Part shown: in pieces, positions 11,529 through 17,031 of the stretch
Numbering within the stretch: the stretch's first letter is position 1
How the letters are laid out: the number at the start of each line of letters is the position of its first letter
NCBI RefSeq assembly: GCF_988242995.1
Contig: NZ_OZ547043.1
Strand: one strand, 5' to 3'
DNA length: 64,000 nt
Translations under genes and position numbers: made by a program
The notes under the pieces: generated by a model
What the model saw: only the letters and a program-made list of their open reading frames with translations
Databases searched by the model: none
Told to the model about the DNA's origin: nothing

Positions 11529-11963
11529 TTACAGCCTCTGTAACGGATTATCAGCCCTGGCATCTTCCGACGGCACCTCCTGCCGCCCCCACGCCCTGCT
11601 GTATACCCCGGTACCGCAGCGTGGGCAGCACTTTTCCCCCTCATAATCTTCGTCACACATCACACAAAACCACTTTCTCACCTTCACCGTATAATCCGGA
11701 ACCGTCATGCCCTGCAGATGCAAACGACGGGCCTCTTTCTCCGCCGGGTCAAGCCAGGTACATCGCAGCAGGATTTTTTCAGCGACAGTCATCTGGTCAT
11801 GTTCAAACCACGGTGGTTGTCCGTCATTGCCCCGCTGAAGTGTTAACGGGCATCCACAGGACACACAGCACAAAACGTCCTGTCGGTTGTGCTTCGCAGC
11901 TTCTTTCGCCGTAACAAAATGGCCTTTGCTGTCATTCGCCATATAACAGTTCAGAATTCGCAT
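11529..11963 (-). CDS. Cys-rich putative zinc-ribbon protein (paralogue of the upstream gene)
   Basis: Start placed at ATG 11963, preceded by AGGAGG; shares the pattern CxxCG…PWFEH…CxxC…C…CxxCG with the 11951-12358 product. Confidence 0.5.
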   Translation of the reverse strand: MRILNCYMANDSKGHFVTAKEAAKHNRQDVLCCVSCGCPLTLQRGNDGQPPWFEHDQMTVAEKILLRCTWLDPAEKEARRLHLQGMTVPDYTVKVRKWFCVMCDEDYEGEKCCPRCGTGVYSRAWGRQEVPSEDARADNPLQRL

Positions 11964-12358
11964 ATTTCCTCCTGAGTTGTCCGGGGAATACTGAATCCTC
12001 CGGTCTGGCAGTGTGTGCAGTACTGCTCCCCATAATAATCGTGGTGACATTGTCTGCAGTGCCAGCTGGCTTTACGCACCACGGGTAAGGCATCCGGTAC
12101 GAATTGCTGCAGACGTTTAATCAACTGTATTTCTCTGCGCTCCGGCCTGACATAAGGGCACTGTTGACCGTGCTCTGTCAGCCTGTCGTCAGTGTGTTCA
12201 AACCAGGGAAGTTCAGTGTCGTATTGCGGATGGTATCTGAGTGCACTGCCACACAAGTGGCAGGTGTAGTGAGCATAAGGTGCGGCCTGTGCAGTACGGG
12301 CGCCCGTCAGACGTCCGTTGCTATCAAGAGCGATAAAGGATTTTGCGTACATAGTCAT
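11951..12358 (-). CDS. Cys-rich putative zinc-ribbon protein
   Basis: 135-aa ORF with a GAGGA Shine-Dalgarno; motifs CHLCGS…PWFEH…CRQCHHDYYGEQYCTHC; its stop overlaps the start of the downstream paralogue by 13 nt. Confidence 0.5.
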   Translation of the reverse strand: MTMYAKSFIALDSNGRLTGARTAQAAPYAHYTCHLCGSALRYHPQYDTELPWFEHTDDRLTEHGQQCPYVRPERREIQLIKRLQQFVPDALPVVRKASWHCRQCHHDYYGEQYCTHCQTGGFSIPRTTQEEICEF

Positions 12359-12611
12359 ATTCCTCAGCCGCCAGACGACACGCAGGCAACAGCCGTCCCG
12401 GTACGGGCAGCGTGGTCAGGGTGTGAATGGCGGTTCAGTTAAAATCTGGACTGGAGTTTGGGTAAAGCAGGCTGGTTGCTGTTACAGCACTGTGGTTGTC
12501 ACACAATGGAACACTGACGTAAAAAACAGTCAGTGGACGAGTGGATACATCGTTGCCGCCAGACAACAACCCATACTTTTGGTTTGCCGGATATTGGCGC
12601 GCCAGTCGTGC

Positions 12612-13181
12612 TCAACTCCGGCTACAGCCAAAATTGCGCTCACCGGTGCAGTGAGCTTTGGTATGCTCCTTCGCCAGATAGTCAGCACGTTCCAGCACTT
12701 GCTGAAAGCCGGTGTCATCATTACGCGCCAGCCACACCGCCGGCCAGGCCGGAAAATGCACCAGCGTGGCATGGCACCCGACATCCACTCCCAGGGCACT
12801 GCACCACGCCTGTTTAATCATCCCGGCCAGAGACTCCGGAGCGCGGTAATCACCGGCACGACACCAGGTATCCCGGTTGACCAGCAGCATCAGGTGATAG
12901 TGTTTTTTACCTTTGAACTCCCCAAACTCCCGGGCCCAGACGTAATGCAGGGTTGTGGGATGCACGCGTTTACCTTCCCGATGCTTACGTTTCTGGTAAG
13001 CGTCGATTCGGGCTTTCAGGGCATTGATGAAGCGGGATATCACAGCTGCGTCCGTTGCTGCCGGTACATCCGGGAGACGCAGGTCAACCCGCAATGCCGT
13101 CAGGCGGGGATGAACATTCAGTGCGTGCCGCACCGTCTCACGAATACGTTGCTGCCAGAAGGGGTTGTATTTGTAGGTCAT
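12612..13181 (-). CDS. YagK/YfjJ-family (inovirus Gp2-like) protein
   Basis: Start placed at ATG 13181 (MTYKYNPFWQQRIRET…), preceded by GGAG; family assignment from memory of prophage-remnant proteins. Confidence 0.55.
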   Translation of the reverse strand: MTYKYNPFWQQRIRETVRHALNVHPRLTALRVDLRLPDVPAATDAAVISRFINALKARIDAYQKRKHREGKRVHPTTLHYVWAREFGEFKGKKHYHLMLLVNRDTWCRAGDYRAPESLAGMIKQAWCSALGVDVGCHATLVHFPAWPAVWLARNDDTGFQQVLERADYLAKEHTKAHCTGERNFGCSRS

Positions 13182-14927
13182 GGTTAAATCTCCGTATGGT
13201 TCATACGGAATAACCACGTCGTAAAAAATGCGCAGAGTCCCTGAGGTGACCTCCGGCAGGACACTGTCTCAGGCACTCTGTGATAACCCGAACGGTCGTC
13301 TCCGGACTGGCGGTTGAATTTTCAGCGTCGTTTTTTAATGTAAAAAACCGGTTACGGGTAAGGCTGTGAGGAGGGAGTTATGGTGATACGCAAAAAGAAG
13401 TGCAGGGACTGTGGAAACGCGATTACTAATAATACAGAGCCTGTTTAAGATTCTGTGTAAATGCCTTGTCTCAGACGTGACCGTCCAGGCGGTCACCGAA
13501 CTCGATAATAAAGCGGCTCATTGCCATTCGCCAGTCCTTCAACGGCATCGTCCAGTGTGTTGCCCGTATTGTGGTTCTGTCGACCCCTTCGGCTACTACC
13601 GGAATACAGACCGTATCGTTACCATACTGCTGGCGCTGATTATTGTGGTCCTGCTGACTACTGTCAGCGTCAGTGTGTGTATACTGTGTAGCTGGTGAGA
13701 TAACGGTTCATGTATCCCCTGAGCTGACAGTGTACCGTGTATATTAAGCGTAACCGACAGGTTCTCCTTCATACCATATTAAATTTTCCAGGTATTGCCG
13801 CTGCCTTATTTCGTCCCATACAGGAAAACTCATCTGGGTTTCTGACAAATACGCGAAACTCACAGCCCCTCAATATCAACCACACGTTGTAAGCCGGTAA
13901 TACCTGAAAATCAGCCTATTACCGCCCACGCCTCCGGCACCATTCCCTTTTGATTTCGAATTCTTTGTTGTCGCTATACCGCTTAATGTTCCCGGTCCTC
14001 CGGTGCAGATAACACCGGAGTCATCGTAGCGCTGCTTCAATATTAAGGTGACATATTTCCAGACGGAAGCCGGCGCGCGATCGTAAAGTTTGTTCATTGT
14101 CAGTTCTGCCAGCCGGTTGTCAACGGCAGAGTTAAAGGCTTCCAGCTCCGCAAGGGTAAGTTTATAACGCGTGTGGGAATTCACTTTTCCCGCGTCTCCT
14201 GACGTATTACGGGCTGCCACTTACCTGGTGTCCCGCAATACAGCCTTAGTGTTCCGTTATCGGGGATCCGGACGCACCGCAACAACCGGGGAAGTATTTC
14301 TGGTTTAGAGCAGTGTCAAGAGGGATTTCTCAGCCCCTCACTCACCGGCTCAGTCTCAGGGCAGGAGCATTAATACGCTCAGTTCATGTCTTATACAGGA
14401 ATGGGCACAGGGGGAGCTGGCGTGTCACTGCTGATTTTACGCATCAGCGTTCATGTATCTGCACTCTGATACATGAACGATTCACAGCGCTCTGTTACCG
14501 GAGAGATTTACTCTCTTAGCTTACTCTGGCAAATCCTTTACGTTACTCTCTGATGACTTCTTATATTTATAATACCAATCAGACAGCCTTATCCCATCGG
14601 TGATATCAGTCTCCTCCTCGCCAGGAACGGGCTGACTCACTGTAACCACCTCCGAAAACAACTCTGCAATTATCAGAACGCCTGCTTCTCTCCCTGTCCT
14701 CACGAAAACTATCCCCTCTTTATCGCGCGTGCGTGCGGAAGCATCTTTTCGCAACAACCACCCGGTATACCGGTACGGCTCAGCCACCGCAACCTCCCCG
14801 TTTATCTCCTGGCGGTCACATTCCCGATTATTTTTTACGTTTCTCCCCGGTTGTTATGCCGGTGAAGGTGGCGCGCTGTTTTCATGACCACACCGGCTGG
14901 TTTAACAACATCCGGAGGAACATTCTC

Positions 14928-15134
14928 ATGGCTACCCCAGTTTCACTGATGGATGACCAGATGGTCGACATGGCATTTCTCACTCAACTGACCGGCCTGA
15001 CAGATAAGTGGTTTTACAGGCTCATCAGGGATGGGGCCTTTCCGGCTACCATCAAGCTGGGCCGCAGCTCCCGCTGGCTGAAAAGTGAAGTGGAAGCCTG
15101 GCTACAGGCGCGTATTGCACAGCCCCGCCCGTAA
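14928..15134 (+). CDS. alpA: AlpA-family phage/island transcriptional regulator
   Basis: 68-aa product from internal ATG 14928 (MATPVSLMDDQMVDMAFLTQLTGLTDKWFYRLIRDGAFP…EVEAWL) with a helix-turn-helix typical of AlpA. Confidence 0.75.
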   Translation: MATPVSLMDDQMVDMAFLTQLTGLTDKWFYRLIRDGAFPATIKLGRSSRWLKSEVEAWLQARIAQPRP

Positions 15135-15228
15135 TTTCTGACCGTTATCCGTTCACCCGCAGCAGACGTAATCCCCGGCCTGCCGGCGGCATTCTGCTGC
15201 CTGTTATATCCCCGTGAGGAATATGAAA

Positions 15229-15831
15229 ATGAAACAACAGTATCAGACCCGCTACGAATGGCTCCACGAAAGCTACCAGAAATGGCTGACCGGCTTCACC
15301 CGGCACGCCGTATCCTGGGGCGTGTGTCATCCGAATATCTACTACTTCCATAATCTGACGCCCGGTTGGGTGTCATTCAATGGTGAAAAACCGGAGATTG
15401 CCATCGTACCCCAGAGCCTGCACCGGCTGATTTATGGCCCTGACAAACGGGCCACGCCGCCCCTGGATGATGATCTGATTGTGAATTTATGCACCAGTGA
15501 ACATCTGCTGGTTCATCATCCGATGCTGGAAGGCATTCTCCTGTCTGAATGTGAACGTCTGAGGCAGCGTTCTCTGGCAAATAAACTGATCAGCCTCTTC
15601 CGTCAGTTTGGTGGCACGGAGTTGCGCCTCAAACTGGTCTGGCTTTGCTGGCTTGATTTAATGACCGGAAACAGCCTTGAAGACTGGAAAGAGAACCTGA
15701 AACGGAAATCAGAAAAAGAGCTGGAGGAATGGATCATCAACCGTCAGAGGCAGAGCGCAGCACTGACGGATCTGATGGATCAGTACGTGCTCCTGGCATA
15801 CCGCACAACGGTTGACGATAGCCGCAACTGA
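15229..15831 (+). CDS. Hypothetical protein (possible HNH-like motif)
   Basis: ORF just downstream of alpA; start at ATG 15229 with GAGGA upstream; segment CHPNIYYFHNL…FNGEKPEIAIVPQSLHRLIYG loosely resembles an HNH nuclease core. Confidence 0.5.
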   Translation: MKQQYQTRYEWLHESYQKWLTGFTRHAVSWGVCHPNIYYFHNLTPGWVSFNGEKPEIAIVPQSLHRLIYGPDKRATPPLDDDLIVNLCTSEHLLVHHPMLEGILLSECERLRQRSLANKLISLFRQFGGTELRLKLVWLCWLDLMTGNSLEDWKENLKRKSEKELEEWIINRQRQSAALTDLMDQYVLLAYRTTVDDSRN

Positions 15832-17031
15832 TGCCGGTTGCTTCCGGAAGGTGTGACAAAATACGGAAATGATGATGCTCCCGGCCCCGCATGCTCACCT
15901 GCAGAGCGTGTTCGTCGTCATCATACTGAGCCATGACGGGCGTCTTAAGGGCATCCTGTCATTGCTGAGCAGGCAACACCACCAGAGGAGCCACGGACAG
16001 GGATGTTCTTTACAGCCCGATACACGCCAGGTTCTCAGCAGACTGAATGTGCAGGTGCGGTTATTCACCAGAAATGGCATGCTGCGGTACATACCCATCC
16101 TGGTGACAATATGTACGTGGCGACAGCGATCCCGGCACTGTGGAAGAGACTCACTCAGCCTGCAGGATATTCTTTCCGGCATCCGGGAATGTCCGCCTGA
16201 ATGCAAACAGGATGATATTTGAATCCGTAATACTGTTCTTTCATCATAAATAATTTATGCAGATACAGTTAACCGTTACAGTAGCCGGTTTGTTTTACCG
16301 GGAAATAATATCCGTCAGACTGATACCGGAACATATCTGAAACACGTTATGATGTTTTGTTATCAGAAATGTTGTATATTCTTATCCGTGGCGACAGTTT
16401 AATGCCCTCTGGTATCACCTGATAATGTATATCCTGCGATGATTCGTTATATTTACGGGACACGCCTCTTTTCATTGTGCTCCTTTTCAGACTTCATTTT
16501 CCGTAAGTGTTCCCCGGCATAAAGGAGGTACCTTTCTGGCGTTTATAACTCTCTTTATCGGTGACGCCGGTAATACAGGGAATACCACACCGACAAACGA
16601 GGTATTAACAGACGATATTTCAGTGTCCATAATTTTTCTGTCCGGTTAAATAACGTCAGTCTGCTGCCCTCTGACTGTAATCATCAAAGCCGGAATGCAT
16701 ACCGGGTTACAACGTAAAAAAAGTGATGCTGGCCCCCGGTGCAGCTGGCGGGCGAAACATGTTTACCTTTCAATACCCCCTGTCTGCAGTCTCCACTCTT
16801 CCATCCTCTTAAGCTACGTCGGCCACATGAGTGCACTTCCATGATAACAGGTATTCCTGTCAGCATAACGAAGCCGGTTACCTTCCCTTCCTCCTGCATT
16901 TCCTGTCAGAATGACTATACAGCGCGCAGATTGCCTTTTTATTGACCATCTTAATATACCATTATAAACTTCTTTTTATCATATTATTATCACCTTATTA
17001 TGTTTAATTTTTAAGCAGCCGGAGAAAGAGG

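Follow-up and report, generated by a model that had tools for sequence, protein, structure and literature searches.

This report concerns a gene-poor spacer of about 1.7 kb (positions 13200–14927) in a stretch of 64,000 nucleotides from NCBI RefSeq assembly GCF_988242995.1, contig NZ_OZ547043.1 (hereafter the window), in which only short open reading frames (ORFs) lie between a YagK-like gene and an alpA-like gene of an Ag43 island. We consider it very probable that the spacer is the divergent control region of these two genes, containing in addition two broken accessory genes, and that what remains of it is regulatory. The two border genes and the remnants of the two accessory genes, one encoding a small zinc-ribbon/transmembrane protein and the other a paralogue of hha known as hha3, are laid out as follows, with supporting evidence in brackets (PGAP is the NCBI Prokaryotic Genome Annotation Pipeline).

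12612–13181, minus strand: YagK-like gene (inovirus Gp2 family), left border (Pfam PF11726, YagK_YfjJ_C, E=6e-48; PGAP annotation).
13380–13436, plus strand: 5' fragment of the zinc-ribbon/transmembrane gene, 19 codons (alignment with related loci and Escherichia coli 042).
13437–13554, minus strand: remnant of the insertion sequence IS1414 (IS256 family), terminal 118 bp (97.5–99% identity to annotated IS1414/IS256-family transposase gene ends).
13555–13698, plus strand: 3' fragment of the zinc-ribbon/transmembrane gene, 47 codons and stop (alignment with related loci and 042).
13876–14046, minus strand: read-through extension of hha3, 56 codons (stop loss relative to 042; normal 3' flank in other alleles).
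14047–14220, minus strand: hha3-type Hha/YmoA paralogue, pseudogene, 58 codons (Pfam HHA; PGAP; hha3 primers; 042 protein WP_001344112.1).
14928–15134, plus strand: alpA-like gene (AlpA/excisionase-type helix-turn-helix), right border (Pfam PF05930, Phage_AlpA, 35.1 bits against a cut-off of 21).

A megablast search of 5426 complete E. coli genomes detects all or part of the spacer in 4251 of them, at a median of two places per genome. In the window it belongs to the hha3 locus of a flu-yeeR (CP4-44-like) island, an identification that follows from the gene order of E. coli 042, near-identity of the spacer, primer matches and the spacing to ag43. The 042 locus (L027 among the related loci that were compared) has the same gene order as the window from an IS66 element to Ag43: IS66, two zinc-ribbon genes, a Gp2-family gene, a 66-amino-acid (aa) hypothetical protein, a 58-aa Hha/YmoA protein, an 88-aa hypothetical protein, a helix-turn-helix (alpA-like) gene, a GTPase and Ag43. 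Between the two spacers there are nine substitutions in 1628 shared bases and a single 118-bp insertion, which is in the window. The primers for hha3 (EC042_4796) given in the supplementary table of Prieto et al. (PMC4864382) match the window exactly at 14179–14198 and with one mismatch at 14045–14066, the mismatched base being that of the stop codon, while the hha2 reverse primer has three mismatches. In 042, the ag43 copy EC042_4803 lies seven genes past EC042_4796 (PMC4864382), with which the layout of L027 agrees. Islands of the flu-yeeR type have been linked to hha2/hha3 and are repressed by H-NS/Hha (Bernabeu et al., 2019, PMC6480617). The spacer is thus the already known, ordinary hha3 locus in a slightly more decayed state than in 042 (PMC4864382; PMC6480617): island, gene order and sequence are the same and an Ag43 gene lies downstream, but the window has lost a stop codon and carries a 118-bp scar, whereas both small genes are intact in 042. 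In its intact state the spacer would hold the gene for a 66-aa zinc-ribbon membrane protein on the plus strand and hha3 on the minus strand; here both appear to have been inactivated, the former by an IS1414 scar and the latter by stop loss.

The zinc-ribbon gene is recognizable as two short ORFs, 13380–13448 (22 aa) and 13411–13698 (95 aa), which are the halves of one split gene. Its ATG at 13380 is preceded by the Shine–Dalgarno sequence GAGGAGGGAGTT (GAGGAGG), and the 118-bp insert shifts the frame and brings in a premature TAA at 13446–13448, so that the window has no uninterrupted 64–66-codon ORF of this family (WP_001297900.1, WP_001297219.1). When the protein is rebuilt without the scar, H17N is its sole difference from the 042 protein. 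The gene is intact (64–66 codons) in 11 of the 14 related loci fetched (L003–L006, L010–L013, L015, L016 and 042) and damaged in the others, by deletions in L017 and L018 and by a frameshifted C-terminus in L014; in most related copies it sits ~200 bp from the YagK-like start codon. The protein reads MVIRKKKCRDCGNAITHNTVCCPYCGSVDPFGYYRNTDR followed by a hydrophobic tail. Across the family the CxxC...CCPYCG cysteine pairs are conserved and the C-terminal tail diverges, yet stays hydrophobic. The ratio of non-synonymous to synonymous substitution rates (dN/dS) is 0.45–0.53 at dS up to 0.86, with ORF length kept, as would be expected of a genuine small protein that evolves fast. For alpA, dN/dS is 0.04–0.24, and its product also matches an excisionase/transcriptional regulator in PHROG. 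Members of the zinc-ribbon family occur only in Escherichia, Shigella, Salmonella and Klebsiella; they have no Pfam model and are named only 'hypothetical' or 'zinc-ribbon domain-containing'.

The scar that splits this gene consists of the last 34 bp of IS1414 and the last 84 nt (~28 codons) of its transposase gene (position taken from L007). It resembles the transposase-distal end of annotated IS1414 copies, to which its 118 bp are 97.5–99% identical, but it is a terminal fragment only, in which no complete transposase, second inverted repeat or target-site duplication is found. In the uninterrupted gene its two flanks join directly and nothing is duplicated. Because no target duplication remains, most of the element must have been deleted after insertion. 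The probable sequence of events is that a copy of IS1414 inserted at codon 19/20 of the zinc-ribbon gene and was then cut by deletion to its last 118 bp, which would have left the frameshift and the premature stop. The scar is absent from 13 of 13 related loci and its junction occurs in only 57 of the 5426 genomes, which marks it as a recent, lineage-specific lesion. The opposite polarity, in which the 118 bp came first and the 'intact' gene arose by losing them, was considered as well; it is contradicted so far by the 97–99% identity to IS1414.

The second broken gene lies within a 114-aa ORF (13876–14220, minus strand) that contains an HHA domain (PF05321, 61.8 bits against a cut-off of 25, E=7.6e-17). 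Over its first 58 codons it is identical to 042 Hha3, but the stop codon TGA has become TTA at 14044–14046 (base 14045, C in 042, is A in the window), and since this C-to-A change removes the stop, the frame runs on for 56 codons through what is the normal 3' flank. The window therefore contains neither an intact 58-codon hha3 ORF nor a stop directly after the C-terminal ...VWKYVT/FIR, and in identical records PGAP flags this gene as 'incomplete; missing C-terminus'. The other end of the protein is shortened too: only positions 14–57 of the HHA profile are matched, the N-terminal part being missing, and the score against the NCBIfam Hha model (NF008191) is 63.7 against a cut-off of 90 bits, compared with 93.3 for an intact 74-aa relative. 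Full-length island-borne hha paralogues of 70–74 aa are found in L004, L013 and L017 and as P0198 and P0205; the allele family shared by the window and 042 has lost the first part of hha. An N-terminal deletion peculiar to the window was entertained and rejected: the published hha3 already has this truncated 58-aa form, and the 042 protein starts at a GTG equivalent to window position 14220. Because 042 hha3 has the same truncated form, the window-specific lesion is the loss of the stop only. With the Hha/YmoA family at large (Hha, YdgT/Cnu and the plasmid and island paralogues) the window copy shares a clear HHA domain within acquired, H-NS/Hha-repressed DNA; it differs in its missing N-terminal part (as in 042 Hha3), its missing stop and its score below the NCBIfam cut-off.

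A GC-rich hairpin, CUCCGGUG-UUAUCUG-CACCGGAG, lies at 14003–14027 on the minus strand, ~20 nt downstream of the former hha3 stop. It has no U-tract, is conserved in L004, L006, L015 and L016, and may mark where the hha transcript ends or act as a stabiliser.

There are reports, for Hha and for hha2/hha3 mutants of 042, of binding to the N-terminal domain of H-NS and of co-repression of acquired genes; in that strain one ag43 copy is modulated by hha, hha2 and hha3 alike, and the expression of hha3 is far below that of the other two (Prieto et al., 2016, PMC4864382). By analogy with this literature (PMC4864382; PMC6480617), an intact island-borne Hha paralogue would be expected to join H-NS in silencing island genes such as ag43.

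What is left once the two broken genes are set aside would be two stretches, the YagK-like leader and the conserved module ahead of alpA, with a character that points to regulation rather than coding. The features concerned, together with an 88-aa ORF antisense to the module and a pair of hairpins next to it, are these.

13179–13218, minus strand: 5' leader hairpin of the YagK-like gene, pairing the Shine–Dalgarno sequence ACGGAG and the AUG at 13181–13179 (folding).
13223–13280, minus strand: terminator-like long hairpin (13233–13280), followed by 4 nt and U6 (13223–13228) (folding).
14430–14480, no strand assigned: two adjacent hairpins, GCTGAT...ATCAGC and the perfect 12-bp palindrome CGTTCATGTATC...GATACATGAACG (folding, z-scores −6.2 and −4.0).
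14521–14787, minus strand: 88-aa ORF, PGAP hypothetical protein WP_000840364.1 (no family match; no codon signature).
14562–14927, plus strand: conserved non-coding module upstream of alpA, 366 bp (conservation profile).
14839–14921, plus strand: alpA leader hairpin, 83 nt (folding; invariant pairs).

In a conservation profile computed over 13 loci, 13182–13380 and 14562–14927 are as conserved as the flanking genes. The alpA module occurs in 3205 of the 5426 genomes at 77–100% identity; its mean pairwise identity is 0.70–0.98 in 30-nt bins, the last ~100 nt being at the level of the alpA coding sequence, and it includes an AT-rich block with a perfect TATAAT (14568–14573) and highly conserved blocks at 14652–14681 and 14802–14927. 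Within the leader hairpin, GUUUCUCC (14839–14846) pairs with the alpA Shine–Dalgarno sequence GGAGGAAC (14914–14921), whose pairing probability of 1.00 is matched by only one to three of 200 shuffled leaders. The z-score of the hairpin is −2.7 in the window, −4.0 in L004 and −3.5 in L017, and because its pairs are invariant it shows no compensatory covariation; the fold of the whole 366-nt leader is not unusually stable (z-score −0.7). Occlusion of the Shine–Dalgarno sequence as a general, conserved feature of alpA leaders was tried as an idea and dropped, the divergent leaders being indistinguishable from shuffled ones. The palindrome at 14430–14480 is imperfect in L003, L005, L006 and L010–L012 and is therefore not conserved.

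The leader of the YagK-like gene also folds strongly, the segment 13170–13300 of the minus strand having a minimum free energy of −53.5 kcal/mol and a z-score of −6.3. The pairs of its start-site hairpin (13179–13218) are invariant in 10 loci, and a 5-nt insertion present in three loci falls in the loop. Upstream of it, the 13233–13280 hairpin with its U6 is stable and mostly conserved, with one compensatory change from G–C to A–U (in L004), but the U-tract begins only after a gap of 4 nt, half of the structure is missing in L017 and a simple terminator scan does not flag it. On these folds, both operons would start with a hairpin that buries the ribosome-binding site, and translation would probably be low until some signal opens it. 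The region upstream of alpA is also a likely target of H-NS/Hha, by analogy with the CP4-type prophage CP4So of Shewanella, whose alpA promoter is silenced by H-NS (PMC5148205). Likeness to CP4-type alpA regions (E. coli CP4-57; Shewanella CP4So, PMC5148205) extends to the PF05930 gene, a long conserved upstream region containing AT-rich sequence and a location in an H-NS/Hha-repressed island. Of the two alternatives to decay that a preliminary description of this DNA had put forward, an unannotated small RNA and a regulatory element of the island, the former found no match in Rfam 15 (covariance-model search; none at E≤1 over 11000–17000 and none even at E≤10 over 13100–15000), while the latter looks plausible, as judged from two blocks at least as conserved as the flanking genes and from stable predicted leader hairpins.

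Other observations concern the sequence around these leaders. A perfect inverted pair, CGTAAAAAAT and ATTTTTTACG, is found at 13220–13229 and 14830–14839, such that each leader, read toward its own gene, has AUUUUUUACG just before the start-site hairpin; divergent AlpA loci have a similar GTAA-N4-TTAC-like A/T tract ~90–100 nt upstream of alpA, in either orientation. An upstream ATG at 14856, conserved in 15 of 15 loci checked, is in frame with alpA in the window-type allele (92 aa), while two 1-nt insertions in the other allele type make it the start of a 25-codon upstream ORF whose TGA overlaps the alpA ATG (ATGA). This ATG was not accepted as the start of AlpA, as it has no Shine–Dalgarno sequence and opens the 25-codon upstream ORF in the other allele. 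Upstream of alpA there is also a poly-C tract of 7, 13 and 20 C in the otherwise near-identical L010 (~2750–2760), L011 (~2750–2765) and L012 (~2750–2775), corresponding to window ~14752–14762, where the sequence is CAACCACCC; the length change could be slipped-strand variation or a sequencing artefact. L003 has an IS110-family ISEc20 at this spot. Finally, the alleles with full-length hha (L013–L018) carry CTCATGT(A/G)TTTGATCT as one or two direct repeats immediately before the AT-rich block, ~10–60 nt upstream of the TATAAT block (window equivalent ~14520–14560); the window-type allele has instead the motif GTTCATGTAT in three copies (13706, 14449 and inverted at 14468). The TTTGATCT-containing repeats and the GTTCATGTAT motifs may be operator-like sites.

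On the opposite strand of the alpA module lies the 88-aa ORF. It is identical in 042 and is annotated by PGAP there and in records identical to the window, as WP_000840364.1. Five observations speak against a protein gene. Variable columns are spread evenly over the three codon positions (27/27/31, compared with 11/8/27 for alpA), frameshifting indels of 2 bp and 13 bp occur in other alleles, and homologous ORF calls are split between two frames for the best-conserved DNA block, AACTCTGCAATTATCAGAACG (VLIIAELF versus RSDNCRV). Searches of Pfam, NCBIfam and PHROG gave no match, and the ORF is annotated only in alleles at least 99% identical and in none at or below 96%. The lack of periodicity, the mixed frames, the indels and the lack of a family argue that the DNA is conserved for a reason other than an 88-aa protein. 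That it is a real gene, for which the existence of divergent 85-aa homologues might have spoken, was rejected after alignment and codon-position analysis; from sequence comparison, it is probably not one and is most likely an accident of conserved non-coding sequence.

These results bear on most of what the preliminary description had said about the spacer. Its statement that base composition is ordinary holds (GC 0.46–0.53, usual for E. coli). The absence of convincing genes is borne out in that 13200–14927 contains no intact, evolutionarily conserved protein gene, but annotated and split genes do exist there. Recognisable domains and good ribosome-binding sites had both been denied to the short ORFs; the HHA domain of the 114-aa ORF contradicts the first, and the strong Shine–Dalgarno sequences at ATG 13380 and GTG 14787 the second. 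Nor is the region unannotated, since RefSeq records that are 100% identical carry a PGAP Hha/YmoA pseudogene at 14047–14220 and WP_000840364.1 at 14521–14787, both on the minus strand. The suggestion of decayed coding sequence proves right for the zinc-ribbon gene (IS1414 remnant) and for hha3 (stop loss) but not for the remainder, which is conserved non-coding DNA. Reconstruction of an intact gene by homology, which was to turn decay into an annotation gap, fails in the window itself and succeeds in E. coli 042, where both genes are intact.

Some points nevertheless weigh against reading the spacer as a control region with two broken genes, and it is convenient to consider them together. A GGGGAGG lies 5 nt before the GTG (14787) of the 88-aa ORF, which is open in many alleles and annotated by PGAP (a 623-member cluster). 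As far as its sequence goes, the 114-aa read-through ORF keeps the whole of Hha3 and its product could still be active. Without the first ~13 HHA positions and with weak expression in 042, the function of Hha3 is uncertain even when it is intact (PMC4864382). No sigma-70 promoter consensus was found for either operon in a promoter scan, and in the sigma-70 promoter and terminator scan the counts were no higher than in shuffled sequence. The case for the leader hairpins lies in thermodynamics and sequence invariance, not in covariation, and in divergent AlpA loci (Plesiomonas, Klebsiella, Moellerella, Salmonella) 51–103 of 200 shuffles pair the Shine–Dalgarno sequence as well. The first of these points lead to a different view, that this is an annotation gap and not decay, with the 88-aa ORF and the 114-aa Hha3 read-through protein both real and functional here. 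To the annotation of WP_000840364.1 and its well-placed Shine–Dalgarno sequence this view can add that homologous ORFs of 77–88 aa are called in many genomes and, for the 114-aa protein, which retains all 58 Hha3 residues, that gene finders do call read-through forms of hha (P0183, 102 aa). However, PGAP itself treats the latter as a pseudogene and its extension is untranslated 3' flank in every other allele, while for the 88-aa ORF the flat codon-position profile, the indels, the conserved core read in two frames, the lack of a family in three libraries and the missing annotation in every allele at or below 96% identity all tell against translation, and we regard an annotation gap as highly improbable.

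The other alternative starts from the leaders and turns on RNA-level control. According to it, the YagK-like and alpA leaders, which share ATTTTTTACG, are an unannotated cis-regulatory RNA switch for an AlpA/Gp2 module, one possible form of which would be AlpA-dependent read-through of a leader terminator combined with opening of the hairpins that occlude the ribosome-binding sites. The model for this is AlpA of Pseudomonas aeruginosa, an antiterminator at leader terminators (PMC7969949; PMC9371919). Like that system, the window has an AlpA-family gene, and the terminator-like hairpin in the leader of the neighbouring operon may correspond to its leader terminator (PMC7969949); it may be speculated that AlpA could bypass the terminator-like hairpin ahead of the YagK-like gene as it does in P. 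aeruginosa (PMC7969949). In accord with this scenario, the leader blocks are as conserved as coding DNA or more so, the folds of the YagK-like leader (z-score −6.3) and of the alpA leader (−2.7 to −4.0) stand out, the YagK-like gene is preceded by a terminator-like hairpin with U6, the two leaders hold the inverted pair CGTAAAAAAT/ATTTTTTACG, and AlpA, Gp2-type and zinc-ribbon genes are linked in plasmids of five other genera. However, the leaders have no Rfam match and almost no covariation, the U-tract lies 4 nt past a stem of which L017 lacks half, occlusion of the Shine–Dalgarno sequence is not significant in divergent loci, and the fold of the whole 366-nt leader is not unusual. Moreover, such a switch would explain only the edges of the 1.7 kb and not its middle. 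We therefore consider an RNA switch an unlikely account of the spacer; that two folded leaders flanking decayed genes form an undescribed RNA-level circuit serving a recurring Enterobacterales AlpA/Gp2/zinc-ribbon module is an equally long shot. The divergent control region with two broken accessory genes remains the reading that we prefer.

The recurrence of these three genes can be seen in L019–L025 (plasmids; Plesiomonas, Klebsiella, Moellerella, Salmonella and E. coli), in which AlpA-family genes 44–75% identical to that of the window directly adjoin inovirus Gp2-type and zinc-ribbon genes, mostly in the same direction. This suggests that AlpA, Gp2 and the zinc-ribbon protein form a functional module with a range far wider than E. 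coli islands, but statistically the leader features did not carry over to these plasmid AlpA loci. The AlpA of the window is presumably only distantly related to that of K-12, and any control of excision may be moot because the island integrase is a fragment.

Outside the spacer, the left end of the island (~7200–11200) is heavily degraded according to the annotation of an identical record (L001:1–3996), in which a tyrosine recombinase/integrase fragment without N-terminus, an IS110 fragment, ISEc47 and a complete IS66 (tnpA, tnpB, tnpC) are found; this fits an immobile, decaying island. In a scan for the YagK-like protein in other species only two short contigs came up, both encoding proteins 94–96% identical to it, one from Paenibacillus tengchongensis (L008, 683 bp) and one from a Collinsella metagenome-assembled genome (L009, 2199 bp); they are most likely E. 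coli contamination of those assemblies.

The main value of these findings lies in annotation hygiene, the spacer consisting of two small genes, both broken and either overlooked or wrongly called by gene finders, together with probable regulatory DNA. The entry WP_000840364.1 is probably spurious, having been called antisense to the alpA leader. The published hha3 polymerase chain reaction (PCR) used as a 'virulence indicator' should, judging from the primer matches, amplify the stop-less allele as well (a 154-bp product with one 5' mismatch in the reverse primer), for which reason hha3 PCR positivity is no proof of an intact gene. Though still uncharacterised, the 66-aa zinc-ribbon membrane protein is widespread and its gene evolves as coding sequence; the alpA and YagK-like leaders offer cheap targets for studying how the Ag43 island is silenced.

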